Shown here: positions 11,365 to 56,199 of the stretch, piece after piece
How the letters are laid out: the number at the start of each line of letters is the position of its first letter
Position numbering within the stretch: the first letter of the stretch is position 1
Assembly: GCA_902786465.1 (NCBI GenBank)
Contig: CADACQ010000007.1
Location: 20,600-84,599 of the forward strand
Direction of reading: 5' to 3'
Origin: an uncultured Eubacteriales bacterium
GTDB taxonomy: Bacteria > Bacillota > Clostridia > Christensenellales > CAG-138
Length of the DNA stretch: 64,000 nucleotides
Notes under the pieces: generated by a model
The model's input: the letters and a program-made list of their open reading frames with translations, nothing else
Told to the model about the DNA's origin: nothing
Database searches by the model: none
Position numbers and translations under genes: made by a program

Positions 11365-11568
11365 AGTAAAAACCCCTCTTTCCAGCTTTTTTTCATTGTA
11401 CCGCAACCTTGGATCAATTACAATCCGCCCGGAAAGATTTGCACATTTGTCCATCACTTTTTTGCATAATATCCTGCAAAAGGAAGAAAAGTATCGGCAG
11501 CGCGACGCTTTTGCGGCTTGGACGGGATTTGGGCATTTGTGAAAAATGAAGAAAAAACTGGACAGGGG

Positions 11569-11597
11569 CGGGGGAGCCGATTATAATACACTACGTA
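11569..11597 (+). promoter_or_regulatory. sigma-A-type promoter for the lipoprotein gene
   Basis: TGGACA (11569-11574), 17-nt spacer, TATAAT (11592-11597), about 75 nt upstream of ATG 11673. Confidence 0.55.
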
Positions 11598-11672
11598 TAC
11601 AGGCGGCCTGCCCCCTGGGGTGCGCCGCGGCGTACGACACATCATTTTGCAAATAAAACAGGAGGGATAGAC

Positions 11673-13082: not shown

Positions 13083-13089
13083 GTATGCG

Positions 13090-13121
13090 AAAAAACCTCC
13101 CCTGCAGGGGAGGTTTTTTTA
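13090..13121. terminator. intrinsic terminator hairpin
   Basis: aaaaaaCCTCCCCtgcaGGGGAGGttttttt immediately after the stop at 13082; flanked by an A-tract and a T-tract. Confidence 0.85.
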
Positions 13122-13170
13122 TTCATCACAGGATCGTGCGCGAAAACCAAACCACAGGGAGGAAAACGCT

Positions 13171-15012: not shown

Positions 15013-15028
15013 TCCACTTCACAAAAGA

Positions 15029-15072
15029 GGCCGGGGAGAGCGCTGAAGCTCGCCCCGGCCCAGGAGGTTTTT
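15029..15072 (+). terminator. possible weak terminator/attenuator hairpin overlapping the next RBS
   Basis: GGCCGGGG...CCCCGGCC stem (15029-15060) followed by caggaggTTTTTT. The T-run is separated from the stem by the RBS, so function is uncertain. Confidence 0.3.
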
Positions 15073-15076
15073 TATC

Positions 15077-16360
15077 ATGCGTGAAGAATACTTGCTTGCC
15101 CTCCTGATGCTGGGGGTGGTGGCGGTGGTGGAGATCATCACCCGAAACCATCCCAAGTGGTGGGCGCCTGCCCTGCTGCTGGCCGCCGTGGCCGGGAGCC
15201 TGGCGGCGGGCATGGGCCTGCGCTTCCGGGAGATCGTGGAGGGGCCCTTCGGCTTCCTCGACGCCCTGCTCCCCTGCGTGGTGGGCATGATCTTTCTCAG
15301 GGTCCTGAAGGACAACGGGGCCTGGGACGGGCTGCTGAGCCGTCTGCTGGGAGGGAGCCCGATCCTCTCCAGCTTCGGGGCCCTGCTCTTTGTGGCCCTG
15401 CCGGGCATGCTGACGGGCTTTGCCGCGGCCTCCGTGCTCATGAGCGCCAAACCGGTGTATTCCTACCTGCGCAGCCGCGGCGCCGACAAGGCCAAGGCCG
15501 TGGGTTTCATCGCCGTGGGCGCGTTCCTGGGCATGATGCTGCCCCCCAACTGCATCCCCGCCATCGTGGCGGCTAACGGCGCCGGGAGCGTGCTGCCCAC
15601 CCCCTATGTGGGCTTCTTCCTGCCGCTGCTGGTGCTGGCCCTGCCTGCCTTCCTCCTCTTCGGGATCATGAGCGCGCCCCTCTTCAAGGGGACCGCTCCT
15701 GACCTTCCCAAGGGAAAGCTGCTGCCGCTGCTGCCCCTCGTTGTGGTCCTGGCGCTGGTGCTGGTGGAGGGGCTGTTGGGCTCCTACGTGTACGTAGGCG
15801 GCCAGGTGATCATCTTCCTCGTCGGCCTGGTGCTGGCCTTCCTCCTGCCGGCGGAGCGCCGGGGGCTCAAGGCGGCCCTGGACACCGTGCTCCAGGGCAC
15901 GGCGGATCTGGCCATCCCCGCGGCGGCGGTCCTGGCGTTGGGCTCCTTCATCGAGGTCAGCTCCATGAACGGCATCCGGGGCATCTTCTCCTACCATATC
16001 CTGCCCTGGACCAACGGGGATCTCACCTGGGCGGTGATGCTGGTGCTCATGGCCCTGTCCCTGGCGGTGGGCTTCTTCCTGTCGGCGCCCCTGCCCGCCT
16101 TCTTCATCACCTACGCGGTGTTCCCCATCGGGTGGCTGGCCAACACGGTGATCGTCACCGGCTGCGCGGCGGCCGTGGGCGTGGTTTGCCTCATAGCCTT
16201 CCGGGGCGGCGTCTTCTCCCGGACCAAGGAGGAGCTGGGGATCGAGGACGTGACCTATAAGCAGGTCCTGCCGCAGCTGCTGCTGCCGGCCCTGCTGGTG
16301 ACGGTCCTGGGCGTCGTCATGGTCGTCTTCGGCGACAAGATGACGGGACTCATTCTGTAA
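15077..16360 (+). CDS. DctM-like (TRAP large-subunit / ion-transporter superfamily) permease, copy A
   Basis: 427 aa, polytopic. The segment LPGMLTGFAAASVL...AVGAFLGMMLPPNCIPAIV resembles the DctM signature (sGSs.A...P....G.lG..iPPS). Paralogous to 18523..19797. Confidence 0.7.
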   Translation: MREEYLLALLMLGVVAVVEIITRNHPKWWAPALLLAAVAGSLAAGMGLRFREIVEGPFGFLDALLPCVVGMIFLRVLKDNGAWDGLLSRLLGGSPILSSFGALLFVALPGMLTGFAAASVLMSAKPVYSYLRSRGADKAKAVGFIAVGAFLGMMLPPNCIPAIVAANGAGSVLPTPYVGFFLPLLVLALPAFLLFGIMSAPLFKGTAPDLPKGKLLPLLPLVVVLALVLVEGLLGSYVYVGGQVIIFLVGLVLAFLLPAERRGLKAALDTVLQGTADLAIPAAAVLALGSFIEVSSMNGIRGIFSYHILPWTNGDLTWAVMLVLMALSLAVGFFLSAPLPAFFITYAVFPIGWLANTVIVTGCAAAVGVVCLIAFRGGVFSRTKEELGIEDVTYKQVLPQLLLPALLVTVLGVVMVVFGDKMTGLIL

Positions 16361-16373
16361 GGAGGGAAAGCAC

Positions 16374-16520
16374 ATGATATCCATCATCTATTACGTGGTG
16401 ATCTCCCTGCTTGCGGTGCTGCTGCTGGTGGACCTGCTGAAGAAGCGCCCCCTGCCGGAGCTCATTTCCCTGGCCGTCATCCTGGTGACCTTCGCCCTCA
16501 GGGCGCTGCACGTCAAGTGA
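16374..16520 (+). CDS. 48-aa two-helix membrane miniprotein, copy A (not in ORF track)
   Basis: ATG 16374 lies 13 nt after the permease stop, behind AAGGAGGGAAAG. Sequence: MISIIYYVVISLLAVLLLVDLLKKRPLPELISLAVILVTFALRALHVK. A paralogue sits in the same position at 19810..19962. Confidence 0.65.
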   Translation: MISIIYYVVISLLAVLLLVDLLKKRPLPELISLAVILVTFALRALHVK

Positions 16521-16530
16521 GGAGGCGGCC

Positions 16531-17673
16531 ATGAAGAAATACAGCTATCTTTGGAAAAATATCCTGGTGCTGGCCGTGGCCCTTCTGTTCGCCGCGGTGG
16601 CGGCCCACGACTTCCTCGCCATGCGGACCCCGGAGCCCGTGGTGGCCAGCAAGGGCCTCACCCGGGTGGCCAGGCTCTCGGAGTACTGCGCCAACCTGAA
16701 GGGCACCGTGGGGGACGAGGCGGTCTACGTGTTCGATTCCGGCGTGCCCGGCGGCACCTTCCTGGTGCTGGGCGGCACCCACCCCAACGAGAGCGCCGGC
16801 ATGATGGCGGCCATCGCCATGGCGGAGAACATCGAGGTGACGGCAGGCCGGGTCTTCATCATGCCCTGGACCAACACCTCGGGCTTCACCCACACCTCGC
16901 CTCTCGACGGCATGGTGGACATGTTCACCATCACCCTGAAGGACGGCTCCACCCGCACCTTCCGGGTGGGCAACCGGCTCACCAACCCGGTGGATCAGTG
17001 GCCCGATCGGAACTACTATGAGGGCACCTCCGGCCGGAAGCTGGTGGGCACGGAGACGGCGGAGATCCGCAACGTGAACCGGCTCTATCCCGGCAACGAG
17101 AACGGCGTTCTCACGGAGCAGGTCTGCGCGGGCATCAAGAACATGATCGTAGAGGAGAACGTGTCCATCGTCATGGACATGCACGAGGGCTCCCCGGAGT
17201 TCTACTATCTGGACACCACCATGGCCCATGAGCGGGCCCTGAACGTAGCCTCCCTCATGGCCATGGACATGGGCATGGAAGGGCTGGACATGAAGGCGGA
17301 GCTGTCCGGGCAGACCAGCTACGGCCTGTCCCACCGGAGCCTGGGGGACAACACCGACGCCCTCATGACCCTCATGGAGACCTACAACCCCTCCATGGGC
17401 CCCCTTCACGGGAAGATGGACGACGACCTCATCGTCAACGGCAACGAGCCCAACTACTACCAGGCCCATCTGGACGGCTACATCTACTACCGGGTGAAGG
17501 AGAACGGCATCCCCCTCATCGAGCGGATCGCCCGGCACATCGTGTGCATCACCAAGCTGAAGGACGCCTACAACCTGTATCATCCCGAAGCGCCCATCGA
17601 GTTCACCTGTCTCGGCTCCTACGACGACATGATGCAACTGGGCCTCGAAGGCGTCTTCAAGCCCGTCAAATAA
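16531..17673 (+). CDS. membrane-anchored zinc carboxypeptidase-like protein (AstE/AspA - M14-like fold), copy A
   Basis: N-terminal TM helix. LVLGGTHPNE (HxxE), RNVNRLYPG (NxxR...PG) and VMDMHEG (third zinc ligand context). Paralogous to 19973..21109. Confidence 0.75.
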   Translation: MKKYSYLWKNILVLAVALLFAAVAAHDFLAMRTPEPVVASKGLTRVARLSEYCANLKGTVGDEAVYVFDSGVPGGTFLVLGGTHPNESAGMMAAIAMAENIEVTAGRVFIMPWTNTSGFTHTSPLDGMVDMFTITLKDGSTRTFRVGNRLTNPVDQWPDRNYYEGTSGRKLVGTETAEIRNVNRLYPGNENGVLTEQVCAGIKNMIVEENVSIVMDMHEGSPEFYYLDTTMAHERALNVASLMAMDMGMEGLDMKAELSGQTSYGLSHRSLGDNTDALMTLMETYNPSMGPLHGKMDDDLIVNGNEPNYYQAHLDGYIYYRVKENGIPLIERIARHIVCITKLKDAYNLYHPEAPIEFTCLGSYDDMMQLGLEGVFKPVK

Positions 17674-17717
17674 GGCAACCCCATACGAATATATAAGGAA
17701 AAGAGGAAAAGAAAACC

Positions 17718-18440
17718 ATGAAAAAGATCATCGCCATCCTGTTGGCCGTCCTGTTCGTCACCGCCCTCGCCGCCTGCGGCAGCAAGAGCGCTGAGACCGC
17801 CCCCGCCGCCACCCAGGCTCCCGCCGCGGAGCAGAAGCAGGAGGGCTACACCTCCTCCCAGGGCACCGTGGACGGGTTCGATCCCAACCAGAAGACCGAG
17901 TTCGCCATGAACACCAGCGAGGAGGTCCGCACCTTCAACATCGGCGAGGTGGACCCCTCCCTGTTCGAAGCGCCCATCCTGGTCACCTCCTTCGGTCAGA
18001 GCGCCGACACGTCCATGATGGACGCCATCATGAAGCGGTCCGGCGTGAAGGACTATGCCTTCAACGCCCTGGCCAAGGACACCGACATCAAGAACTATAA
18101 GACCGTCATCATCGTCTGCGGCGCCAGCTCCAAGGGCCTGGGCGCGGCCGGCATCTCCGAGGCGGACGAGACCGCCCGGGCCGAGAAGATCATGGCCGCC
18201 ATCAACGAGACCAACCCGGCGGTCATCATGTGCCACCTGGGCGGCTCCATGCGCCGGGGCGTCCTGTCCGACAAGCTCACCGACATGGTGCTGGAGGTGG
18301 CCAAGTACATGGTGGTGGTGGAGGACGCCAACTTCGACGGCAAGTTCACCACCGTGGCCCAGGAGAAGAACATCCCCCTGACCTACCTGTACGCCATCAA
18401 GGACGGCATGGACGTGTTCTCCGCCCTGTTCAACAAATAA
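17718..18440 (+). CDS. lipoprotein of unknown function (candidate solute-binding partner)
   Basis: Signal peptide with lipobox LAACG and an Ala/Pro/Gln linker, then a ~190-aa alpha/beta-looking domain. I recognise no motif. Confidence 0.7.
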   Translation: MKKIIAILLAVLFVTALAACGSKSAETAPAATQAPAAEQKQEGYTSSQGTVDGFDPNQKTEFAMNTSEEVRTFNIGEVDPSLFEAPILVTSFGQSADTSMMDAIMKRSGVKDYAFNALAKDTDIKNYKTVIIVCGASSKGLGAAGISEADETARAEKIMAAINETNPAVIMCHLGGSMRRGVLSDKLTDMVLEVAKYMVVVEDANFDGKFTTVAQEKNIPLTYLYAIKDGMDVFSALFNK

Positions 18441-18457
18441 GAACCTGTTTCGTCGCC

Positions 18458-18496
18458 CTGCCCGCCCCGATCCCCGGGGCGGGCGGGATGTTTTCC
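18458..18496 (+). terminator. possible intrinsic terminator
   Basis: CCCGCCCC gatcccc GGGGCGGG stem-loop followed by cgggatgTTTTcc. The T-tract is short. Confidence 0.4.
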
Positions 18497-18522
18497 TGAT
18501 CCGATACAGAGAGGAGAACGCT

Positions 18523-19797
18523 TTGGATATCGAATTACTGGTCCTGTTGGCCATGCTGGGCGTGTTCCTGATCGGGAACCTGCTGCTGAAGCTCCCCGTC
18601 AGCATCTCCATGATCCTGGGCGCCGTGGCCGGCGCTCTGGTGGCGGGGGAGGGCATCCCCATCCGGCATCTGTTCGAGGGGTGCTTCACCTATGTGGACA
18701 CCATTTTGATCATCTCCACGGCCATGCTGTTCATGACCGCCATCCAGCGCTCCGGCGCGTTGGAGGCCCTGAACGCCCTGATCGTCACCAAGTTTTATAA
18801 GGTGCCGGCCCTCATGCTGATCCTGCTCATGTTCATCGTCATGTTCCCGGGCATGATCACCGGCTCCTCCACCGCCGCGGTCCTCTCCGCCGGCGCCATC
18901 GTGGCCCCCATATTGCTGAAGATCGGCATCCCCAAGGAGCGGGCGGGCGCCATTTTGGCCGTGGGCGCCATCATGGGCATGGCGGCCCCGCCGGTGAACA
19001 TCCCCGCCATGCTGATCGCCGGGGGCGTGGACATGCCCTACATCGGCTTTGAGGGGCCCCTGTTCCTCATCACCATCCCCTGCGCCATCTTCACGGTCCT
19101 GTTCCTGGGGCTCAAGTACTGCAAGAACCTGGACATCGAGGAGCTGAAGAAGGACCTCGATATGGAGGTGGGGAAGAAGTACGGCTTCAAGCTCTATATC
19201 CCCATCGTCCTGCTGGTGGTGCTGCTGGTGCTGACCCGGGCCGTCCCCAAGCTCATGCCCCAGCTGGGCACGCCCCTCATCTTCCTCCTTTGCGCCGTGG
19301 TGGCCGTGTTCACGGGCCGCCGGTTCAACGCCTGGGAGGGGGGCCTGGAGGCCATGGACACCACCATCCCCGTCCTCGCCAAGCTCATGGGCGTGGGCAT
19401 GTTCATCCAGATTTTGACCCTCACCGGCGCCCGGGGCTATATCGTGGTCTCCTGCCTGGGCTGGGGTCTGGTGGCCCTGTATATCGCCATCTGCACCATC
19501 ATGCCGGGCTTCGGCGCGGTCAGCTCCTACGGGGCGGCCAGCGTCATGGGCGTGCCGTTTTTGCTGGTGCTGCTGGACACCGGCGATCAGATCACCATCG
19601 CGGCCCTGCTGTCCTTCATCTGCTGCCTGGGCGATCTCATGCCGCCTACGGCTCTCGCGGGCAACTACGCCGCCCAGATCGTGGGCCTCAAGTATAAGCC
19701 CGTGCTGAAGCACTGCGTGATCCCGTTCCTGGTGTGCATCGCCCTGGCGGTGATCTACCTGCTCAACTCCAAGTACATGGGTTTTTTGACCCGGTAA
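18523..19797 (+). CDS. DctM-like permease, copy B
   Basis: TTG start behind GAGAGGAGAA; 424 aa. FPGMITGSSTAAVLSAGAIVAPILLKIGIPKERAGAILAVGAIMGMAAPPVNIPAML matches the DctM-type signature. Confidence 0.75.
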   Translation: MDIELLVLLAMLGVFLIGNLLLKLPVSISMILGAVAGALVAGEGIPIRHLFEGCFTYVDTILIISTAMLFMTAIQRSGALEALNALIVTKFYKVPALMLILLMFIVMFPGMITGSSTAAVLSAGAIVAPILLKIGIPKERAGAILAVGAIMGMAAPPVNIPAMLIAGGVDMPYIGFEGPLFLITIPCAIFTVLFLGLKYCKNLDIEELKKDLDMEVGKKYGFKLYIPIVLLVVLLVLTRAVPKLMPQLGTPLIFLLCAVVAVFTGRRFNAWEGGLEAMDTTIPVLAKLMGVGMFIQILTLTGARGYIVVSCLGWGLVALYIAICTIMPGFGAVSSYGAASVMGVPFLLVLLDTGDQITIAALLSFICCLGDLMPPTALAGNYAAQIVGLKYKPVLKHCVIPFLVCIALAVIYLLNSKYMGFLTR

Positions 19798-19809
19798 GGA
19801 GGGAAGAAC

Positions 19810-19962
19810 ATGCTGTTTTTGAAATACGTGTATCTGGCCATCGTGGCCCTGCTGCTGGTGCTGATCCTCACCAACATGTTCAAGAAGGACAAGTTCCTCT
19901 ACCAGCTGGACGCGGCCCTGGTCATCATCCCCCTGATCCTGCGGCTGCTGCTGATCAAGTGA
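19810..19962 (+). CDS. 50-aa two-helix membrane miniprotein, copy B (not in ORF track)
   Basis: ATG 19810 behind AAGGAGGGAAG. Sequence: MLFLKYVYLAIVALLLVLILTNMFKKDKFLYQLDAALVIIPLILRLLLIK. Same topology and central KK motif as 16374..16520. Confidence 0.65.
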   Translation: MLFLKYVYLAIVALLLVLILTNMFKKDKFLYQLDAALVIIPLILRLLLIK

Positions 19963-19972
19963 GGGCATAGCT

Positions 19973-21109
19973 ATGAAGAAGATACCGAAACGAATCTGGA
20001 CCGCCGCGGCCCTGTGCCTCCTGGCCGCCGCCGTGTGCGTGTACCTGGGAATCACCTTCTCCTCCATGTGGAAGGACCAGCCCATATATCCCGGCCCCGG
20101 CGTCACCGCGGTGGAGATGCTTTCCGACTACAACCCGGGCCTCAAGGGCACCCATGGGGACACGGAGGTCTACGTGCTGGATTCCGGCAAGCCCGGCGCG
20201 GCGGTGCTGGTGCTGGGCGGCACCCATCCCAACGAGCCCTCGGGCGTGGTGGCGGCGGTGGCCCTCATCGAGAACTGCCAGCCCAAGACCGGCGTCCTCT
20301 ACGTGATCCCCCGGGCCAACCACAGCGCCTTCACCTGCACGGACCCCCAGGAGGGCGCGCCCATGTTCTTTACCATCGAAACCCCCGGCGGGGATCGGAC
20401 CTTCCGCTTCGGCTCCCGGGCCACCAACCCCATCGACCAGTGGCCTGACTCCGACGTGTACGTCCATAGGACCAGCGGCCAGACCCTGTCCGGCAGCGAG
20501 ACCCGGAACCTGAACCGGGCCTATCCCGGCAGCAACAGCGGCACCTTCACCGAGCGGATCACCTACGGCATCACGGAGCTGGTGAAGCAGCGGGACGTGA
20601 AGATCACGGTGGACCTCCACGAGGCGTCCCCGGAATACACCACGGTCAACGCCATCGTGGCCCATCAGGACGCCATCGAGCTGGCCAGCTGGGCCTCCAT
20701 GGACATGCAGATGGAGGGCATGAACATCAGCATCGAGGCGTCGCCCACCAACCTGCACGGCCTGTCCCACCGGGAGCTGGGGGACTTCACCGACACCCTG
20801 GCCACCCTCATGGAGACCGCCAACCCCTCCCAGGGCCGGCTTCGGGGCCGTACCAACGCGGATCTGGTGGTGAAGGGCGTGGACAAGTACTACGTCCGGG
20901 CCCGCAAGGCCGGGTCGGTCACAGTGGAGTTCACCGAGGCGGGCATCCCCCTGGACGAGCGGGTGGCCCGGCACATCTGCGGCATCGAGCAGCTGTGCAA
21001 CGCCTATAACGAGCTGGGGAACCAGGAGACCATCGAACTGGGCGGCCTGCCCTCCTATCAGGAGATACTGACCAACGGCATCGGGCGCTATCTGTCCCCG
21101 GGAAAGTAA
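19973..21109 (+). CDS. membrane-anchored zinc carboxypeptidase-like protein (AstE/AspA - M14-like), copy B
   Basis: N-terminal TM helix. LVLGGTHPNE, RNLNRAYPG and TVDLHEA. Colinear with copy A over its whole length. Confidence 0.8.
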   Translation: MKKIPKRIWTAAALCLLAAAVCVYLGITFSSMWKDQPIYPGPGVTAVEMLSDYNPGLKGTHGDTEVYVLDSGKPGAAVLVLGGTHPNEPSGVVAAVALIENCQPKTGVLYVIPRANHSAFTCTDPQEGAPMFFTIETPGGDRTFRFGSRATNPIDQWPDSDVYVHRTSGQTLSGSETRNLNRAYPGSNSGTFTERITYGITELVKQRDVKITVDLHEASPEYTTVNAIVAHQDAIELASWASMDMQMEGMNISIEASPTNLHGLSHRELGDFTDTLATLMETANPSQGRLRGRTNADLVVKGVDKYYVRARKAGSVTVEFTEAGIPLDERVARHICGIEQLCNAYNELGNQETIELGGLPSYQEILTNGIGRYLSPGK

Positions 21110-21115
21110 ATCATC

Positions 21116-22063
21116 GTGAAGAGATTATGGCTGATCTGCCTGGCGGGGCTGCTCCTTTTGGGATGCGCCCCCCGGCAGGCCACAACGCAAAACCTACAGG
21201 CGACGGCAGCGCCCGCTGCTGACGCCACCCCCTTGCCGGTGGACGACGGGCCGGACCCCCAGGAGGAAGGGGGCATGACCGTCACCATCGGCGGGGAAAT
21301 TTTCGCCTACGACGGCTATCGGGTCCTGGAGCCGGAGGTCACCTTCGACATCCACACCAGGACGGCCCACGACTTCGTGGCCGACTTCGACACGGCATAC
21401 CCGGTGACCCGGGAGAGCTATCTGCTGACCCCCGGCGCGGACACGGAGACCACCGTGGTGAAGATCACCGGCCAGGACCCCGGCCCCACCCTTTACGTGG
21501 CGGCGGGCATCCACGGGGACGAGCGAGCCGCCTGGTACGCGGGGCTCATGCTCCAGAACATCACCATCCAGGCGGGCACCCTGTACGTGCTGGCCCCGGC
21601 CAACGCCTGGGGCGCCCAGCGGAACCAGCGCCGGGTGGGGGAGGACGACCCCAACCGCTGCTTCCCCGGGAGCGAGACGGGCACCATGGCCCAGCGGATA
21701 TGCTATGCCATCTTCCACGACATCGAGGAGAAACAGCCGGAGCTGCTGCTGGACCTCCACGAGGCCATCGTTTACAAGGAGGGCCGGGACTTTCTGGGCA
21801 GCACCCTCATCTACACCTCCCTGGAGGGGATGGAGGACCTGTTCTTCGACCTGCTGTTCGCCACCCAGGAGGGGGAGGTGACCTCCTGCCCCTTCGGCTA
21901 CAACGGCCCCGGGCCGGCGGGCAGCATGAACCGGACCGTCACCGATCAGCTGAAGATCCCCGCCATCACCGTGGAGACCTTCCGGGGCTTCCCCATGGAG
22001 CGTCGGGTATCGGATCAGCTGAAGGTGGTGGCCTACGTCCTGCGCTATAAGGGCATGCTATGA
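21116..22063 (+). CDS. zinc carboxypeptidase-like lipoprotein (AstE/AspA - M14-like), third paralogue
   Basis: GTG start, lipobox LLLGC. AAGIHGDE (HxxE), DPNRCFPG and LLDLHEA. Confidence 0.75.
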   Translation: MKRLWLICLAGLLLLGCAPRQATTQNLQATAAPAADATPLPVDDGPDPQEEGGMTVTIGGEIFAYDGYRVLEPEVTFDIHTRTAHDFVADFDTAYPVTRESYLLTPGADTETTVVKITGQDPGPTLYVAAGIHGDERAAWYAGLMLQNITIQAGTLYVLAPANAWGAQRNQRRVGEDDPNRCFPGSETGTMAQRICYAIFHDIEEKQPELLLDLHEAIVYKEGRDFLGSTLIYTSLEGMEDLFFDLLFATQEGEVTSCPFGYNGPGPAGSMNRTVTDQLKIPAITVETFRGFPMERRVSDQLKVVAYVLRYKGML

Positions 22064-23178
22064 GCCTGCCGGAATACATTTTGATCGCTTTGTGCGCCGC
22101 ATATCTCCTATACCTGGCGGGGGAAAAGCTCCTCCTTCGCCGGTGTAGGAGTTCTTTCGTTCACGTGATCCACGTGAACGGCATCCGGGGCAAGTCCTCC
22201 ACGGTCCGGCTCATCGACGCGGGCCTGCGGGGCGGCGGCGTCCGGGTGCTCTCCAAGTCCACCGGCACCCTGCCCATGATTCTTCACGTGGACGGCCATG
22301 AGGAGCAGATCGTGCGCCGCGCCCCCGCCAACATCCGGGAGCAGGGGGACATGATGCGCCTTGCCCGCCGGGAGGGGGCCCAGGTGCTGGTGGTGGAGTG
22401 CATGGCCATCCATCCCGAGGGCCAGCGGGCCTCGGAGGACATGCTGCGGGCGGACCTGGCCGTCGTCACCAACGTGCGGCCGGACCATACGGACGTAATG
22501 GGGGAGACCCGGGAGGAGATCTGCGACGCCCTCCTCTCCATGCGCCCCCACAAGGGGGACCTGTTCACCTGTGAGGCGGACATGGCGCCCCGGATGGAGA
22601 AGGCCATGGCGGGCCGGGGACGGGTATTCGTCATCGAGCCCCGGCCGGAGGGGTATCCCGGCATACCTGACTTTCCGGAGAACGTGGCCCTGGCCCTGGC
22701 GGTGTGCCGGGCGGCGGGGGTCAGCGAGGCGGACGCCCTCGCCGGCATGGCCCACGTGCGGAAGGACCCCTACGCCTTCGAGCGCATCGACCATGGGAAC
22801 GGGGTGTTCCTGAACGCCTTCTCCGCCAACGACGTGGTCTCCACCCTGAAGCTGTACGAAGATCAGAAAGCGGAGGGTCGGCTCATACTGATTTTGAACA
22901 ACCGGCGGGATCGACCGGCCCGGGCGGAGGATATGAGCCGCCTCGCAGCCCGGCTCCCGGCGGAGGAGATATGGGTGCTGGGGGAGCAGCCCCGGCTTTT
23001 GAAGCGGCTGCTTAGGCGGACCTGCCCTCGGGTACCGGTGCGGATATTCGCCGATCCCGGCGAGGTGCCGCTGATATTTTCAGAAAAGACCGTGCTGCTG
23101 TGCGCGGGGAACATCAAGGGCGCGGGCGAAGCGCTGACGCAGCGGATCAGAGACCTGGGGAAGGAGGTGGGATCATGA
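22060..23178 (+). CDS. pgsB: poly-gamma-glutamate synthase PgsB/CapB (Mur-ligase fold)
   Basis: N-terminal TM helix, then VNGIRGKSS (P-loop), VVECMAIHPE, NVRPDHTDVMGET, NAFSANDVVST, LNNRRDRPARAE and CAGNIKGAGE. Colinear by eye with Bacillus CapB/PgsB. ATGA overlaps at both ends. Confidence 0.9.
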   Translation: MSLPEYILIALCAAYLLYLAGEKLLLRRCRSSFVHVIHVNGIRGKSSTVRLIDAGLRGGGVRVLSKSTGTLPMILHVDGHEEQIVRRAPANIREQGDMMRLARREGAQVLVVECMAIHPEGQRASEDMLRADLAVVTNVRPDHTDVMGETREEICDALLSMRPHKGDLFTCEADMAPRMEKAMAGRGRVFVIEPRPEGYPGIPDFPENVALALAVCRAAGVSEADALAGMAHVRKDPYAFERIDHGNGVFLNAFSANDVVSTLKLYEDQKAEGRLILILNNRRDRPARAEDMSRLAARLPAEEIWVLGEQPRLLKRLLRRTCPRVPVRIFADPGEVPLIFSEKTVLLCAGNIKGAGEALTQRIRDLGKEVGS

Positions 23179-23597
23179 CGGAGAAGATACTGGTGCTGGG
23201 CATCGTGCTGAGCATCCTGTTCTACGAATGCACCCGCCTGTCCCCGGGGGGCATCATCGTGCCCGGGTATTTCGCCCTGTGTCTCACCACGCCCCTTCGG
23301 ATCGGGTATACCCTCGCTTTGGTCCTGTTGACCTGGGCCCTGCTCCGGGGGCTGTCGAACCTGTTCATCCTCTACGGCAAGCGGCGCTTCGCGCTGGCCA
23401 TCGTGCTCTCCTATCTGTTGAACCTGGCGGTGGTGGCCACGGGCCTGCTGCCCTTCCCCGTAGGCGTCATCGGCCTCATCGTGCCGGGGATCATGGTGCG
23501 GGAGATGGAGAAGCAGGGCGTTGGAAAGACCCTGCTGGCCCTGGCCGCGGTCACGGGCATCCTGGCCGCCGTCATGCTGCTCATGGGGGCCCTGTGA
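23175..23597 (+). CDS. pgsC: poly-gamma-glutamate biosynthesis membrane protein PgsC/CapC
   Basis: 140 aa. GGIIVPGYFAL...ILYGKRRFA...GLIVPGIMVREMEKQG parallels B. subtilis PgsC (GLVVPGYL...ILYGRRKFA...GIIVPGLIANTIQKQG). Confidence 0.9.
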   Translation: MTEKILVLGIVLSILFYECTRLSPGGIIVPGYFALCLTTPLRIGYTLALVLLTWALLRGLSNLFILYGKRRFALAIVLSYLLNLAVVATGLLPFPVGVIGLIVPGIMVREMEKQGVGKTLLALAAVTGILAAVMLLMGAL

Positions 23598-24976
23598 AGC
23601 GGCGGGAACGGACAACGTGCATATTGATCCTCATCATGGTCTTGGTGCTGCTCGCCGGGTGCCTGGGGAGCTTTTGGGGCGTTCGGACCGTCCCCAAGGG
23701 CCACTATGAGGCCATGGTCCGGGCGGCAGAGCAGATGGAGAGCTGCATGGCGGAGCTGAAGGCGGAGCGCCTGCGGCGGGGCATCCCCATCGACGAGGAA
23801 ACGGACCGGTTCTCCACGGGTCTTCTCGGCACGGACTTCACCGCCATCACCACCACCCTGGGGAACCTGGAGGCCAAGCGCACCTCCTGCCAGCCGGACA
23901 TGGCGGCCCTGGTCTGCGACCTGTACGTCCGGGCCGGGGTGCAGGCGGGGGACCGGGTGGCTATCTGCAGCACCGGCTCCTTCCCGGCTCTGAACCTGGC
24001 CGCCCTGTGCGCGGCGGAAGCCCTGGGGGCGGAGCCCGTCATGATCGTGTCCATCGGCGCCTCCACCTATGGGGCCAATATCCCGGCCTTCACGGCCCCG
24101 GAGATGCTCTATCACCTGTATGAAGCGGGCCTCGTCGCCACGGCCCCCGCGGGGGTCACCCTGGGCGGGGACAACGACCTGGGCCTCAACATGGGCGCGG
24201 TGTTCTTCCCCGACGAGGCGGGGGCGCTGCAGGCCGCCCTGGACAGGATGGAGAAGGCGGGGATCGTCGTAACGCAGATACCCGACCGGCAGGCGAACCT
24301 CCGTTGGCGGGAGTCGCTGTACGGGGACGTGAGCTGCTTCGTCAGCGTGGGCGGCCACAACATGGCCCTGGGGGACCACGGCGAGGGCTACGCCCTGGGC
24401 CAGGGGCTGATCCAAAGGAGGGTGACCGACGGGGAGGACTACCTGATGGGCCACTATCTTGCCTTGGGCGTCCCCTGCGTGGGCCTGCTGAACGTGAAGC
24501 AGCTCTGTGCGGAATACGGCCTGCCTTTTGACCCCACAGCCCTTGAAAAGGTGGGGCAAAGTCATTTATACTATGAAAAAGCGTACCCCAGGGCGCCGCT
24601 GCTGATTGCCCTGGCGCTGACGGCCCTTCTGCTGGCCGCCTGCTGGCGGATCCACAGGAGGGGGCCTGGACCCGACCCCATCCCTACGAAAGGAGACGAT
24701 ACCATGAACAAAGCTTTGGCAGAACAGTTTTTGACCCGATACGAGGAGGCCGCCACCCGGCGCGAGAAGGCCCTGGCCCTCTACAACGCCATGGTGGTAT
24801 CCATGCCCAAGGAGGAGTTCCCGGCGTTCCTGGGGGACGCCAGCGACGCCTTCCTGGCCTTCATCAAGACCATGCAGAACGAGGACGCCGACGTGTCCAC
24901 CGCCGTGGCCTACGAGAAGGACGCCCCCTGCAAGCGGTATTTGAATACCCTGTATAAAAAGCTGAAGGCCCTTTGA
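23594..24976 (+). CDS. poly-gamma-glutamate system protein (PgsA-replacing type) with ~90-aa C-terminal extension
   Basis: GTG 23594 gives a GTGA overlap with the pgsC stop. N-terminal TM/lipobox-like LLAGC, a ~340-aa extracytoplasmic domain and a C-terminal TM helix. An in-frame soluble tail begins at ATG 24704 with its own AAAGGAGA RBS. Family assignment rests on context and my memory of the TIGRFAM poly-gamma-glutamate system protein. Confidence 0.6.
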   Translation: MKRRERTTCILILIMVLVLLAGCLGSFWGVRTVPKGHYEAMVRAAEQMESCMAELKAERLRRGIPIDEETDRFSTGLLGTDFTAITTTLGNLEAKRTSCQPDMAALVCDLYVRAGVQAGDRVAICSTGSFPALNLAALCAAEALGAEPVMIVSIGASTYGANIPAFTAPEMLYHLYEAGLVATAPAGVTLGGDNDLGLNMGAVFFPDEAGALQAALDRMEKAGIVVTQIPDRQANLRWRESLYGDVSCFVSVGGHNMALGDHGEGYALGQGLIQRRVTDGEDYLMGHYLALGVPCVGLLNVKQLCAEYGLPFDPTALEKVGQSHLYYEKAYPRAPLLIALALTALLLAACWRIHRRGPGPDPIPTKGDDTMNKALAEQFLTRYEEAATRREKALALYNAMVVSMPKEEFPAFLGDASDAFLAFIKTMQNEDADVSTAVAYEKDAPCKRYLNTLYKKLKAL

Positions 24977-25076
24977 CCTTCAGCTTCGATCGTCGACAAA
25001 CGACAGTTCGCTCCTGCCGGCCGCTGTCCCCTGCCCGTCGCCGCGACGGCGGCTCAGAAGACGGGCGGAGGGAGCG

Positions 25077-25616
25077 TCACAGGCGCCCCATCCGGGGCAG
25101 CAGCCTCTCGTACAGCGCGTCCCGGTTCTCCGGCGTGATATAGAACACCTCCGCCCGGGGCTGGGATCGGACCGCGTTCAGAAAGGCCACGTCCCTGCGG
25201 CTCTTCACGGCAGCGATCACGGGCACGTCCCCGGAGAGGGCCTCCAGCACGGCGGCGGTGAAGGCCTCCGCCCGGGCCTCGAAGAACCCCAGCTCGTCCA
25301 TGACGAGGATGCCGCCGGGCCGGGCCGCACGGACGTACCGGACGCCCAGGCCGTCGAAGACCTCCAGGTTGGGCCGATGGGTCCGGCTGTCGCAGACGCC
25401 GATGCAGTTCTCCTCCGTGTAGACCCGTTCCGCCATGGGCTGCCCCGCCGGGTGGATGTAGATGGGGTGGAACCCGTCCGGGCTCGCCGGGGCCATCTTG
25501 GTGACGAACCCGTACCGGGGCCGGGAGGAGGCCCGGAGCAGCCTTTCGATCAGCGTGCTCTTGCCCACCCCACGCTCGCCGCATATGAGGATGTGTATCT
25601 TTTCCGCCATCCTCAT
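25077..25616 (-). CDS. THEP1-like nucleoside-triphosphatase (P-loop)
   Basis: Start at MRMAEK (ATGA overlap with the upstream stop) or at MAEK (25610). ILICGERGVGKSTL Walker A and VMDELGFFE (THEP1 DEIGKME-like). Confidence 0.75.
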   Translation of the reverse strand: MRMAEKIHILICGERGVGKSTLIERLLRASSRPRYGFVTKMAPASPDGFHPIYIHPAGQPMAERVYTEENCIGVCDSRTHRPNLEVFDGLGVRYVRAARPGGILVMDELGFFEARAEAFTAAVLEALSGDVPVIAAVKSRRDVAFLNAVRSQPRAEVFYITPENRDALYERLLPRMGRL

Positions 25617-26693
25617 GCCCCCAGGGAGTTCCGCGTCAGGTCGTCGAACTGATCCCGGGTGATGTGACAGTGGTAGAACAGCTCGAAATACTCCTGCACC
25701 GCCGCATACAGGTCCAGCTGGGCCGCCTCGGGGTACAGAAGCTCGCTCATCCACAGCATGCCCAGGTACCGCTGGACGGAGGGCGGGAAGCCCATCCAGT
25801 TGTAGGGGCCGAAGGGCACCTCGTAGTATTCACCGTTCCGAATGGCGGTCACGGCCTGCCACTCGGGGCGGTTTTTTACGTCCCCATAGATGCTCTCGGG
25901 GGCGAAGAGGATCACCTCCGGGTCCCAAAGCAAAATCTGCTCCATGTCCACCTCGTTCCCCGTGCCCTTCGACGACGGGCTCTCCACCACCGCCAGGTTG
26001 TTGCCTAAGAGGTCGATGATCTCGGCGTGGTAGCTCCCCTGGGCGATGACGTTCAGCCCCTGGTCCCCGGTGACGTACAGCAGGTTTCTCTTCTCCACAG
26101 CGCCCGCGATCTCCACCGTCCTCGCATAGACCCGGTCGCAGTAGGCGGCCAGGGCTTCGGCCTCGGTCGGCATGTCCAGCAGCTCGCCCAGCTTTCGGTA
26201 CGCGTGCCCCATGGAGGCGGTCAAGGCGGTGATGTGGACGAAGGGGATGCCGGTCTGCTCCTGCAGGGCGTCCAAATCCTCCACGATGGTCTTCTTGGGC
26301 TCGCCCACGTCGATGACTATCTGGGCGCCGCTGGCCCAGGATGGGCAGGTCATAATACTTTCTGTCGAAGAACTGTTCGGCTGTCTTATCCCATTTGCCG
26401 GCGATGCCCGCCAGCTTGTCCGGGCACAGGGCGAACAGCACGATCTGAGCAAGAGGTCCGCTGACGGCCACCTTATCGATGGTACAGGGCACCGCCACGG
26501 TCCGGCCCACCGAGTCGGTAAAGGTCCGCGTCGTGGGCGGAGCCGTTTGTGCGGGCGCGGCCGCCGCGCTTTCCGGCGCTTCGGAGGCTTTGGGCGCTTC
26601 GGTGGGGGCGGGGGCCTCCGGGGTTTTGGCCGCGGCGCAGGCCGTGGACAGCAGCATCAGCGCCGCCAGCAGCAAGGTCAGGATGCGTTTCAT
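25613..26693 (-). pseudogene. FecB/BtuF-type periplasmic binding lipoprotein, interrupted by a frameshift near 26330
   Basis: The N-terminal 120 aa (lipobox LSTAC, ...KYYDLPILGQ) are in the frame of ORF 25830..26693. The rest (ASGAQIVIDVGEPKK...NGEYYEVPFGPYNWMG) is in the frame of ORF 25613..26452. The frame switch falls within ctgggccagcggcgcc on the minus strand. Confidence 0.8.
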
Positions 26694-26705
26694 GTTTTTT
26701 CCTCC

Positions 26706-27398
26706 TTATCGGGGTATATCTCGGACCCGGATGACGATCATGCCCACGGGCCGCAGGGCGGGCAGGTAGTAGGGGAAGACGGGGTCGCCCGTTTCCGTAA
26801 GCCGGGAAAGGGCCTCGGCCTCGGTCACGGCCGTCTCGGGGTCGTAGAGTCGGAAGAAGCGGATGGCGTCGGCAATGCTCCGGAAGGGCTGGCCCATGTC
26901 CGCGTCGAAGGTCTCGGCGGCGAAGGGCACGCCCAGGCGCTCCAATTCCCTACAGGTCAGGGGGTAGGTGAACTTGCGGACGGCCCCCGGGTCCCGGGTG
27001 AAGCGGTGGGTGCTCCAGTTCTTCTTGAACAGGACCAGCGTGTCCCGGCAGTGGCTCTTAGCCCAGGCCAGGGTCTCCGGCACGCCGCCGAAGAAGCAGA
27101 ACAGGCCGCCGTCGTAGACCTCCTCAGGCGGCAGAGCGAAGGCGTCCCCCTGTCGGACGGTGAGCCCTGAGGTCCCCGGAATGTACCGGAGGGGCAGGGG
27201 GGAGAGGTCCATGGCGGTCACGTGGTAGCCCCGCTTCGCCAGGGCCACCGACAGGTGCCCCAGGCCGCAGCCCCCCTCGAACAGGGCGCCGCCGGGGGTC
27301 AGGTGGGCCGCCGCCTTCTGGGCCAAAAGGTCGTAGCTCTTCGTGTATGCGGCGCTGTCGTTCCAAAAGGCGGCGCTTTCCTCGGTCCAAAGGAACAT
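26706..27398 (-). CDS. class I SAM-dependent methyltransferase
   Basis: Start MFLWTEES (ATG 27398-27396) shares one base with the ATPase stop codon (27398-27400). Motif I LFEGGCGLGHLSVALAKRGYHVTAMDLS. Confidence 0.8.
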   Translation of the reverse strand: MFLWTEESAAFWNDSAAYTKSYDLLAQKAAAHLTPGGALFEGGCGLGHLSVALAKRGYHVTAMDLSPLPLRYIPGTSGLTVRQGDAFALPPEEVYDGGLFCFFGGVPETLAWAKSHCRDTLVLFKKNWSTHRFTRDPGAVRKFTYPLTCRELERLGVPFAAETFDADMGQPFRSIADAIRFFRLYDPETAVTEAEALSRLTETGDPVFPYYLPALRPVGMIVIRVRDIPR

Positions 27399-28168
27399 CA
27401 GCTCACCTCCCGGGGCACCAGCACAGGGCCCTGCTCCGTCTCCACCAGCTCGATCCGCCGGCCATAGAGCGCCTCCAAAAGGGCGGGGGTCAGCACCTCC
27501 CGGGGCGCGCCCAGGGCCAGCATCCGCCCCTCCTGCAGGGCCAGGGCCCGATCCGCGAACCACAGGGCGTGCTGGGGATCGTGGGTGGACAGGAGGACGG
27601 TGTACCCGTCCTTCGCCAGGTCCCGGGCGACGCCCAGCACGTGGAGCCGGTTCCCGTAGTCCAAACTGGCCGTGGGCTCGTCCATGAGCAAAATCTTCGC
27701 CTGCTGGGCGAGAGCTCGGGCGATGAACACCAGCTGCTGTTCCCCGCCGGACAGGTGGTCGAAGGGGCGCTCCGCAAGATGGGAGATGTTCACCCGTTCC
27801 ATGGCGTCCCGGGCCGCGGCCCGCTCCTTCTCCCCGGGCAGGTTGAAGGGGGAGAGGGTGTGGCTGGTGCCCATGAGCACCATATCGAAGGCGCTGTACC
27901 GGAAGGACAGGGGATGGGCCTGGGGGATGGCGGCCACCCGGTGGGCCCGCTCCCGGGGCGTGAGGGCGGCCAAATCGGCGCCGTCGGCGGCGATGCGGCC
28001 CGAGTATTTGCGCTCCTGGCCCATGACGCACTTGAAAAGGGTGGTCTTGCCCACACCGTTGGGGCCCAGGATGGCCAGCAGCTCTCCGGCTTCGGCGGTG
28101 AAGGTCAGCTCGTGGAGCACTGGGTGCTTCCCATAGCTGAAGCTCAGGTTTTCCACGGTCAAACTCAT
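27398..28168 (-). CDS. ABC transporter ATP-binding protein (FecE/BtuD-type)
   Basis: Start MSLTVENLSF (ATG 28168-28166). Walker A GPNGVGKTT, signature LSGGEQQ and Walker B ILLMDEP. Confidence 0.9.
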   Translation of the reverse strand: MSLTVENLSFSYGKHPVLHELTFTAEAGELLAILGPNGVGKTTLFKCVMGQERKYSGRIAADGADLAALTPRERAHRVAAIPQAHPLSFRYSAFDMVLMGTSHTLSPFNLPGEKERAAARDAMERVNISHLAERPFDHLSGGEQQLVFIARALAQQAKILLMDEPTASLDYGNRLHVLGVARDLAKDGYTVLLSTHDPQHALWFADRALALQEGRMLALGAPREVLTPALLEALYGRRIELVETEQGPVLVPREVS

Positions 28169-29199
28169 AGCTTTTCCTCCTTCCGCATGATGAGGTAAAG
28201 GAAGAAGGGCGCGCCCACCAGGGCGGTCAGAATGCCGATGGGGATCTCCACAGGCAGCAGGTTCCTTGACACGTCGTCCACCAGCAGCAGAAAGGCGGCC
28301 CCGCAGAGAAAGCTCCCGGGCATGAGATATCGGTGATCGCTCCCCAGGACCTTCCGGCACAGATGGGGCACCACCAGGCCCACCCAGCCGATCATGCCCG
28401 AGAAGGACACGCTGGCGGCGGTGACCAGGGTGGCAGAAAGGAGCAAAGCGAGGCGCACCCGGCCCGTGTTCACCCCCAGGGCCCGGGCTTCGCTGTCCCC
28501 CAGGCTCAGCAGGTTCAGCTGCCACCGGAGCAGGAACAGGGGCGCAAGGCCGATCGCCATGGGCAGAAAGGCCAGGGGGATGTCGGAAAGCCGGGTCCCG
28601 GACAGAGAGCCCATGAGCCAGTAGGTGATCTGGGGCAGCTGATTGGAGGGATCGGCTACCAACTTAATATAGGATGTACCGGCGTTGAACAGGGAGGAGA
28701 GCATGATGCCCGCCAGGATGAGGTTGATGAGCCTTGCCCCCGGCGCCCGCCGGGCTACCAGCATCACGAGACCCACGGAAAGAAGGCCGAAGCAGAAGGC
28801 GCTGACGGTGATCATCCGGGTGGACGCCCCCAGCAAAATGGCCAGGGCAGCCCCGAAGGCGGCGCCGCTGGAGGCCCCCAGGATGTCCGGGGAGGCCATG
28901 GGGTTGTGGAACACCCCCTGAAAGGCGGCCCCTGCCGCGGACAGGGAACAGCCCACCAGGCACGCCATCAGGATGCGGGGCAAGCGGATGTTCACCACGG
29001 CGATCTCCATCTGCTCCGTCCAGGTCCTTGGAAGGGCCCCGCGGCCCGTGAACAGCTCCAGGAACCGGGTCCACAGGATCTTTACCACCGTGAGGGGCGG
29101 CACTCCGTACCGTCCCAGGGAGAAGGAGACCAGAAAGAGGACGGCCAGCAGCAGTCCCAAAATGAGCAACGCCCGCCGGGCTTTTCGCTCGCTGTCCAT
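28165..29199 (-). CDS. FecCD/BtuC-family ABC permease
   Basis: 344 aa, polytopic, with RLPRILMA..VG..L..AG..FQ and GAPFFLYLI typical of FecCD permeases. Confidence 0.9.
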   Translation of the reverse strand: MDSERKARRALLILGLLLAVLFLVSFSLGRYGVPPLTVVKILWTRFLELFTGRGALPRTWTEQMEIAVVNIRLPRILMACLVGCSLSAAGAAFQGVFHNPMASPDILGASSGAAFGAALAILLGASTRMITVSAFCFGLLSVGLVMLVARRAPGARLINLILAGIMLSSLFNAGTSYIKLVADPSNQLPQITYWLMGSLSGTRLSDIPLAFLPMAIGLAPLFLLRWQLNLLSLGDSEARALGVNTGRVRLALLLSATLVTAASVSFSGMIGWVGLVVPHLCRKVLGSDHRYLMPGSFLCGAAFLLLVDDVSRNLLPVEIPIGILTALVGAPFFLYLIMRKEEKL

Positions 29200-30697: not shown

Positions 30698-30752
30698 CAA
30701 AAGACCGTTTCGTTTTCAAAACAGCCGAAAAGTGTATATTCTCTCCGGCAAA

Positions 30753-30781
30753 TTGACTTGCCCCCGGGAGAATGGTAGTAT
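30753..30781 (+). promoter_or_regulatory. sigma-A-type promoter of hutH
   Basis: TTGACT, 17-nt spacer ending in TGG, TAGTAT. Confidence 0.55.
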
Positions 30782-30821
30782 GGACGGTAGAGAAAACAGA
30801 GTTTTTGGAGGTATGCTTGCC

Positions 30822-55973: not shown

Positions 55974-56199
55974 GGATCGAAGGACCCCCTTTCTTCTTTG
56001 TGATATCGGAGGCAAGCATAGCACACGAAAAAAAGGGAAGGATGGTTTCGCCATAGGAAGTCAGGGTGGACCCAAACAAGACAGAATAGGGATACGCCCC
56101 TCTTTTTTCGATTTCCTGCAATTTGCCCCTTGTGTAAAACCGCGTTTTATGGCATTAATAAAGGAAGGGAGTCATCCCGAAATATGACCGATAAGGGGA

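Follow-up and report, generated by a model that had tools for sequence, protein, structure and literature searches.

A 64,000-nucleotide stretch of contig CADACQ010000007.1 from an uncultured Eubacteriales bacterium (rumen Clostridia), referred to here as the window and numbered from its first letter, carries a same-strand gene array in which a poly-gamma-glutamate (PGA) synthase without PgsA is encoded alongside a gamma-glutamyltransferase (GGT), zinc hydrolases of the AstE/AspA type and a DctM-like permease. It is proposed with moderate confidence that the array serves synthesis, turnover and re-uptake, with a PgsA-less synthase making polyglutamate, surface enzymes hydrolysing its gamma-glutamyl bonds and the freed glutamate being taken up again. 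The proposal draws on gene identities, predicted topology, linkage conserved across genomes and expression in rumen samples. To our knowledge, almost all understanding of polyglutamate comes from Bacillus, with its PgsBCA(E) and CapBCADE systems. A first-pass annotation of the same DNA had coupled synthesis, dedicated trimming and transport within the seven genes at 18523–24976. The synthase type and the linkage stand, dedicated trimming is not the sole role, and the unit is larger than was claimed.

The ligase subunit PgsB (22060–23178; all genes are on the + strand unless stated) scores 272.6 bits against TIGR04012, which has a cut-off of 222.7, while the Mur and FolC models reach only 21–27 bits at best (MurE 26.8, FolC 22.9). 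The possibility that it is a MurD/FolC-type ligase, a comparison the first-pass annotation had called for, was rejected because those scores are about ten times lower. Every motif quoted in that annotation is present in the translation (GIRGKSS, ECMA, DHTDVMGET, FSANDV, NNRRDR and GNIKGAG); GIRGKSS forms the P-loop, and a transmembrane helix is predicted at the N-terminus. The membrane subunit PgsC (23175–23597) has multiple hydrophobic segments and exceeds the cut-offs of both TIGR04011 (100.8 vs. 96.45 bits) and Pfam Caps_synth_CapC (PF14102; 96.7 vs. 27 bits), as expected of the PgsC/CapC homologue it had been taken for. The third protein, encoded by sys (23594–24703), is a poly-gamma-glutamate system protein scoring 298.1 bits against TIGR04332 (cut-off 100), and its gene adjoins pgsC both in the window and in related loci (L081–L089).

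A Pfam scan of 48 window proteins found no PGA_cap/PgsA match, in line with the earlier statement that a PgsA/CapA-like gene is absent; PgsE is too small for such a test. A canonical PgsBCA(E) system has PgsA/CapA, and this locus falls outside that definition. Judged from its protein families, the synthase lacks PgsA and is of the TIGR04332 type. When 1.84 billion representative proteins were searched with a profile, ~829 TIGR04332-like clusters were returned (E ≤1e-30; 50% identity clusters), indicating that the PgsA-less system is diverse. As a separate observation, the only window protein of the wider superfamily of PgsA is a calcineurin-like metallophosphoesterase 30 kb away (54930–56054, − strand), which matches Pfam Metallophos at 29 bits and not PGA_cap.

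The sys product was earlier described as an extracytoplasmic protein with one transmembrane helix in the position of PgsA. The ectodomain is upheld, while the helix count is corrected to two, predicted at residues 3–28 and 334–355, and the protein belongs to a catalogued family. Its AlphaFold2 model (predicted local distance difference test score, pLDDT, 94.3) has an alpha/beta ectodomain flanked by one transmembrane helix at the N-terminus and another at the C-terminus. Foldseek found no match to this model in the PDB at E <1e-3, with TM-scores ≤0.25, and the fold therefore gives no functional lead and no similarity to PgsA.

Homologues of sys typically have 350–370 residues, whereas the open reading frame (ORF) in the window has 460 and continues to 24976. 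In the two most closely related loci, L001 and L002, sys and a gene for a 90-residue protein lie in different frames, the stop of sys overlapping the ATG of the small gene (ATGA). Compared with these, the window has an extra C in a C-run at ~24676–24679, which joins the two frames. The small gene (24704–24976) nonetheless retains its own ribosome-binding site, AAAGGAGA, and its ATG at 24704, and it is a separate ORF in L004. Read against its relatives, the seventh ORF of the window is a one-base frameshift fusion of sys with the 90-residue gene, the indel being either genuine or an assembly error. Fused forms also occur in other assemblies (P0121, P0129, P0132 and P0158). The 90-residue protein, which is cytoplasmic and has no Pfam match, is 44% identical to the product of a gene located behind a histidine kinase and response regulator in L083, with the same arrangement in L005.

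All seven ORFs between 18523 and 24976 lie on the + strand where the first-pass annotation had placed them, separated by +12, +10, +6, −4, −4 and −4 nt. The tight same-strand packing it described holds, while its upper bound of +13 nt is measured here as +12. GGAGG-type ribosome-binding sites precede mini1, mini2, perm2 and pgsC. None precedes pep3, pgsB or sys, each of which lies within 6 nt of the preceding gene or overlaps it by 4. The extent of the locus had been half missed, as five further same-strand genes lie immediately 5' at 13171–18440: GGT (13171–15012), the permease gene perm1 (15077–16360), the miniprotein gene mini1 (16374–16520), the zinc hydrolase gene pep1 (16531–17673) and a gene for a DUF6305 lipoprotein (17718–18440). 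The downstream half opens with perm2 (18523–19797), mini2 (19810–19962) and pep2 (19973–21109), followed by pep3 (21116–22063) and the synthase genes. A permease-miniprotein-peptidase triplet is hence present twice in the window, as perm1-mini1-pep1 and perm2-mini2-pep2.

The linkage of these accessory genes to the synthase was followed from both sides. On the peptidase side, a search with a profile built from homologues of pep1 and pep2 yielded 80 species-level loci, the best match being 99% identical in protein sequence and located in a rumen 'uncultured Clostridiales' metagenome-assembled genome (MAG; RUG472). The 80 loci were compared with 13 window proteins by tblastn. In a well-flanked subset of 35, with at least 6 kb upstream and at least 5 kb downstream, GGT and the permease are found in all 35 and DUF6305 in 34, while pgsB and pgsC lie within 10 kb in 20. 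The recurrent order is GGT, DUF6305, permease, miniprotein, peptidase, sometimes pep3, then PgsB, PgsC and sys. Record labels include Clostridia, Tissierellaceae, Tepidanaerobacter, Halanaerobiales, Negativicutes, Spirochaetes, Fusobacterium, Cetobacterium and Varibaculum, and this gene set is shared by two Fusobacterium loci (L071 and L078).

From the TIGR04332 side, all nine neighbourhoods have DUF6305 accompanied by either the permease or a gene series of matching sizes, meaning a permease of ~425 residues, a 48-residue ORF and a peptidase of ~380 residues. GGT was confirmed by Pfam in 8 of the 9. The module stands upstream or downstream of pgsBC, or in divergent or convergent orientation, and linkage that persists through such rearrangement points to function rather than inherited synteny. 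This comparative picture is strong evidence that the module and pgsBC are functionally coupled. The first-pass annotation had asked whether pgsBC is linked elsewhere to genes for the transporter and the peptidases, and both counts answer that it is.

These counts also bear on the main rival explanation, in which the module is a general scavenger of gamma-glutamyl compounds from outside the cell, such as glutathione, gamma-glutamyl peptides or the PGA of neighbours, and stands beside pgsBC only through a shared glutamate or nitrogen regulon, leaving the cell's own polymer unprocessed. The 15 well-flanked loci without pgsBC within 10 kb are what a scavenger would leave, as is the persistence of the module in L004 after the synthase was lost, and the GGT scores as a canonical member of its family. 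The scavenger explanation fits less well with the nine TIGR04332 neighbourhoods, every one of which retains at least the DUF6305-permease part despite rearrangements, or with the peptidase and pgsB genes, which in many loci, the window included, overlap or lie within a few nucleotides of each other. A GGT without a lid loop, moreover, suits polymeric substrates. On this evidence the scavenger explanation is considered unlikely. The pgsBC-free loci do narrow the earlier claim of dedicated trimming, since they mean that acting on the cell's own polymer is not the sole role of the module.

Two further features of the distribution were noted. Sphaerochaetaceae/Spirochaetales rumen MAGs (L007–L015, L018, L020 and others) share the duplicated-cassette order, including the lipoprotein gene upstream of GGT, at ~65% protein identity to Clostridia, which suggests horizontal transfer of the whole array in gut habitats. 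Elsewhere GGT is itself multiplied, some loci having two or three tandem paralogues, and L089 additionally has two DUF6305 genes and encodes a family-less protein of 1111 residues between DUF6305 and pgsB (L082 16700–21128; L089 352–3987 and 4949–8284).

The GGT of the window scores 404.1 bits against TIGR00066 (cut-off 357.85) and carries an IVAGC lipobox. The catalytic threonine is present, TTHLAV aligning with the first residue of solved small subunits. A 9-residue gap falls where the small subunits of the E. coli and H. pylori enzymes have the lid loop. This loop spans ~12 residues in E. coli (Pro438–Gly449), and Bacillus GGTs lacking it have been reported to accept polymeric PGA (PMC8062742). 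The window enzyme fits the lid-loop-negative class and is accordingly predicted to accept PGA. Its closest solved relatives are the E. coli and Bacillus GGTs, and assignment as a CapD orthologue was rejected given 98 bits to CapD against 262 to those enzymes.

The three zinc hydrolases exceed the cut-off of 25 bits for Pfam AstE_AspA_cat (PF24827), with 35.9 for pep2, 47.5 for pep3 and 31.6 for pep1, and pep1 and pep2 are 45% identical. The first-pass annotation had recognised pep2 and pep3 as a membrane-anchored and a lipoprotein AstE/AspA-M14-like peptidase, and the motifs it quoted are borne out in the translations (THPNE/IHGDE, NRAYPG/NRCFPG and DLHEA). In the family alignment (A1), H85, E88, N181, R182, H216, E217 and E281 (pep2 numbering) are invariant. 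By analogy with the family, this set is the predicted zinc ligands (H-x-x-E...H), N-x-x-R carboxylate clamp and candidate catalytic Glu. An N-terminal transmembrane or signal-anchor helix is predicted for pep1 and pep2. The pep3 protein has an LLLGC lipobox, and its gene is found in 24 of the 35 well-flanked loci. From their lipoboxes or signal-anchor helices, GGT, DUF6305, pep1, pep2, pep3 and the ectodomain of the TIGR04332 protein are predicted to lie outside the membrane, and the hydrolases, all predicted to face outward, could act on an exported polymer.

The nearest solved relatives of pep2 in profile searches are AstE/AspA and DoeB deacylases, and the PDB relatives of the peptidases comprise 2qj8, 3cdx, 3na6 and 6twm, with similarity confined to the catalytic core (25–40 bits). 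None of the three can be assigned to a characterised equivalog (AstE, AspA or DoeB), as the best NCBIfam match, DoeB TIGR02994, reaches 16–31 bits against a cut-off of 402.7. For pep3 the PDB sequence matches are 3cdx and 2qj8, followed by a weak, insignificant match to Csd4 (E = 0.08–0.46). Csd4 is a gamma-D-Glu-mDAP (meso-diaminopimelate) carboxypeptidase, and the match raises the alternative that the M14-like hydrolases cut gamma-D-Glu bonds in peptidoglycan while the PgsB-like ligase, in place of free PGA of high molecular weight, makes short gamma-glutamyl oligomers or decorates another surface molecule. The lack of PgsA and a TIGR04332 ectodomain without a known fold relative would agree with such a system. 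Nevertheless, PgsB and PgsC both score above equivalog cut-offs, with the Mur and FolC models far behind, the Csd4 match is insignificant, and PGA has been reported from Fusobacterium according to a paper that cites the original work (PMC3815933). This alternative is regarded as highly improbable.

Each triplet begins with a multi-transmembrane permease. The perm2 product matches Pfam DctM at 50.7 bits (cut-off 23.8) over the full model, which supports the earlier description of a DctM-like permease and places it in the ion-transporter superfamily. It matches no NCBIfam model above cut-off, TRAP_fused giving 37.9 against 320. The perm1 product is a paralogue, 33% identical over the N-terminal half, and its 17.7 bits fall under the DctM cut-off. 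Between permease and peptidase lies the miniprotein, of 48 residues for mini1 and 50 for mini2. Both have two hydrophobic segments, as the first-pass annotation had noted for the 50-residue, two-helix protein at 19810–19962. Both genes have strong ribosome-binding sites, AAGGAGGGAA in the case of mini1, which has homologues at the equivalent position in related loci. On 537 contigs a gene with exactly the mini2 sequence has been predicted. In 74 of the 80 loci an ORF of 47–50 residues ending in ...PLxLRLLxIK was found between permease and peptidase; in the other 6 the script chose a different reading frame. BLASTP gave no alignment between mini1 and mini2, which are judged related from their position, their size and the motif common to the family. 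Neither miniprotein matched a family in Pfam or NCBIfam, and cluster look-ups returned no informative name for the permease, the miniprotein or the 469-residue lipoprotein encoded upstream of GGT.

The DUF6305 lipoprotein (PF19823, 150.7 bits; lipobox LAACG) is encoded between the two triplets. Its AlphaFold2 model (pLDDT 84) shows one alpha/beta domain of the flavodoxin-like type, in which many charged and polar residues are invariant, and Foldseek returned only weak, generic matches (flavodoxin-like, SGNH-hydrolase, type II dehydroquinase and ThiM; TM-scores ~0.3). It was considered as a classical two-lobed binding protein, an idea rejected in view of the single flavodoxin-like domain and the generic fold matches. 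The protein may instead present a ligand or carry out a further enzymatic step.

Measured against TRAP (tripartite ATP-independent periplasmic) transporters of the DctP-DctQ-DctM type, the carrier shares a full DctM domain in perm2, with perm1 under the cut-off, and the genes beside it code for a small membrane partner and a lipoprotein located outside the cytoplasm. It differs in that there is no DctQ domain with its four transmembrane helices, the partner being a two-helix protein of 48–50 residues, and no DctP/TAXI binding protein, as DUF6305 has a single flavodoxin-like domain and no binding-protein similarity. The pairing of a carrier with metallohydrolases for a glutamate conjugate may find an analogy in AbgT with the AbgAB hydrolases. 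No literature description of TIGR04332, DUF6305, the accessory module or this type of locus was found.

DctM-type carriers transport small anions, not polymers. This weighs against a further alternative, in which the module is synthesis and export machinery that replaces PgsA and PgsE, with GGT as a CapD-like wall anchor and the permease, miniprotein and DUF6305 serving export or glutamate supply. Several observations would suit it: PgsA is absent by the Pfam scan (PgsE being too small to test), linkage to TIGR04332 systems is near-obligate, CapD is itself a member of the GGT family, and many Bacillus producers are glutamate-dependent (PMC4928254). In addition to the carrier type, however, the occurrence of the module without a synthase and a GGT sequence nearer to hydrolytic GGTs than to CapD oppose this alternative, which is judged improbable.

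Expression of the locus is seen in four rumen or sheep-gut RNA runs, whose contigs cover 11.6–25 kb at 90–99% identity. Individual contigs bridge the upstream lipoprotein gene and GGT (11677–13981), DUF6305, an intergenic hairpin and perm2 (17790–19883), pep2, pep3, pgsB and pgsC (20894–23312), and pgsC and sys (23523–25017). The co-transcription claimed by the first-pass annotation is consistent with the tight spacing and the junction-spanning contigs, qualified by the contigs being unstranded and possibly including DNA. The data fit transcription as a single long array through leaky internal terminators and are supportive rather than conclusive.

The intergenic hairpin (18457–18487), a 13-bp GC-rich stem with a T-run behind it, located between the DUF6305 gene and perm2, is probably a partial terminator or attenuator. 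A hairpin of like architecture and different stem sequence occupies the same interval in L017 and L025, and it is missing from lineages with only 8–15 nt between the two genes. A sigma-70 scan found no promoter-like site immediately 5' of GGT or perm2. An Rfam scan of 11000–25600 at E up to 0.1 gave no match, and hence no riboswitch or leader was identified.

A dedicated regulatory pair accompanies the module in other genomes. At least 25 of 85 loci have a multi-transmembrane histidine kinase and a helix-turn-helix response regulator behind sys or beside the module, as at L083 11068–13395 and in L005, L081, L082 and L086. Neither gene has a copy in the window, L001 or L002, and the two-component system appears to have been lost in this genome.

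In the proposed pathway of synthesis, turnover and re-uptake, PgsB would act as a membrane-anchored, ATP-dependent amide ligase that, together with PgsC and the TIGR04332 protein, polymerises gamma-linked glutamate and delivers it to the outer face of the membrane. This identity of the product is deduced from the families of the synthase proteins. Outside the cell, the lid-loop-less GGT lipoprotein would remove gamma-glutamyl units from the amino end or may transfer and anchor chains. The pep1, pep2 and pep3 proteins may act as N-acyl-glutamate deacylases that free the C-terminal glutamate, because a gamma-Glu-Glu bond is chemically that of an N-acyl-glutamate and close to N-succinyl-glutamate. 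The AstE substrate N-succinyl-Glu is indeed a near-isostere of gamma-Glu-Glu. The DctM-like permease, with its obligatory two-helix partner of 48–50 residues, would then import the freed glutamate or short gamma-glutamyl units, both direction and substrate being deduced from the carrier family and its neighbours. The DUF6305 lipoprotein would probably participate in uptake. In relatives, the histidine kinase and response regulator would form a dedicated control unit, lost here.

Several observations weigh against this pathway. The module lacks pgsBC within 10 kb in 15 of the 35 well-flanked loci, among them Leptospira, Rectinema and many Sphaerochaeta, and L004, at 84% identity, has cleanly lost pgsB, pgsC and sys and kept the module. 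The loss in L004 lies between pep3 and the 90-residue gene (12081–12391) and leaves both cassettes, GGT and DUF6305 intact; together with the pgsBC-free loci it indicates that the module functions even where no synthase is linked to it. The GGT is canonical in sequence and not CapD-like, DUF6305 lacks the fold of a classical substrate-binding protein, and loci with duplicated cassettes have one DUF6305 for two permeases. The RNA contigs carry no strand information and possibly include contaminating DNA. Finally, the report of PGA production in Fusobacterium nucleatum (Candela 2009, cited in PMC3815933) is a precedent in favour of the pathway, as two Fusobacterium loci have this gene set, but it would be the sole experimental anchor for the locus type and applies at the level of the genus.

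Comparison with characterised loci shows what is shared and what is not. As in B. subtilis, with pgsBCAE-pgdS and an unlinked ggt, PgsB and PgsC are at equivalog level, the synthase stands beside PGA-degrading functions and the GGT lacks the lid loop. The logic of making a polymer and later hydrolysing it to glutamate may also be shared, as Bacillus uses its own PGA as a nitrogen reserve, breaking it down with PgdS and GGT (PMC8062742). Here, however, a TIGR04332 protein takes the place of PgsA and PgsE and AstE/AspA-type hydrolases that of the NlpC/P60-type PgdS, GGT lies within the locus, and a DctM-like permease, a miniprotein and DUF6305 are added. The hosts are also different, being anaerobic Clostridia, Spirochaetes and Fusobacteria. 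B. anthracis capBCADE likewise clusters the synthase with a membrane-associated GGT-family enzyme, CapD, which there yields an anchored capsule, whereas the action on polymer is predicted here. Unlike in capBCADE, the GGT is nearer the E. coli and Bacillus enzymes than CapD, no CapA or CapE is recognised, and extra hydrolases and a transporter are present. Among the TIGR04332 loci of NCBIfam, sys is a clear member and the Fusobacterium loci match in gene content, while the window differs from other such loci in its frameshift-fused sys and the loss of the adjacent two-component system.

The hydrolases resemble the AstE/AspA deacylases (succinylglutamate desuccinylase, aspartoacylase and DoeB) in the H-x-x-E...H zinc site and the N-x-x-R carboxylate clamp. 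The characterised enzymes are cytoplasmic, whereas those encoded here are membrane-anchored or lipoproteins and predicted to face outward. Zinc enzymes of the carboxypeptidase A-like type can cleave PGA, as PghP does (PMC4497714). No match to the PghP family, from which the zinc PGA hydrolases PghP and PghL are known, was seen among the hydrolases here.

Upstream of GGT, and outside the core, lies a gene for a lipoprotein of 469 residues (11673–13082), which has the greatest RNA-contig depth in the region. The protein has an MFVGC lipobox, a linker rich in Pro and Glu, and an internal repeat ~50 residues long (YDFICADD.../YKFTCADG...), and it matched no Pfam or NCBIfam family. Homologues occur 5' of GGT in 23 of the 80 loci. 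The sigma-70 scan placed a promoter-like site at 11559–11587 upstream of this gene, and a terminator hairpin was read from the sequence behind it at 13092–13121. Downstream of the locus, at 25077–29199 (− strand) and 30732–32372 (+ strand), the genes are unrelated to it and encode an NTPase, an ATP-binding cassette (ABC) transporter of the iron-siderophore/cobalamin type (Peripla_BP_2, FecCD and ABC ATPase) and a histidine ammonia-lyase.

The locus places a PgsA-less synthase within a conserved module that comprises five to twelve genes and brings together three families that lack a studied member, namely TIGR04332, DUF6305 and the 48-residue miniprotein. Anaerobes of several phyla carry the module, among them lineages abundant in the rumen and gut, and rumen metatranscriptomes show its expression. 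These findings suggest that polyglutamate production and recycling occur in many gut anaerobes. Cultured carriers exist (Clostridium lundense DSM 17049, Paratissierella segnis BX21 and Fusobacterium sp.), so direct testing is possible. A broader proposal, tentative and on present evidence doubtful, is that the module is a horizontally mobile machine for turnover of gamma-glutamyl polymers, that the carrier, the 48-residue subunit and DUF6305 form a new tripartite uptake system, and that PGA synthesis and recycling are common in gut and rumen Clostridia, Spirochaetes and Fusobacteria. If the synthesis, turnover and re-uptake reading is true, the missing partner proteins of PgsA-less synthases would be defined, and the hydrolases would be new exo-acting gamma-glutamyl hydrolases of use for PGA size control and capsule degradation. 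The carrier would represent an unusual transporter architecture, and PGA would be a shared store of nitrogen and glutamate in gut communities.

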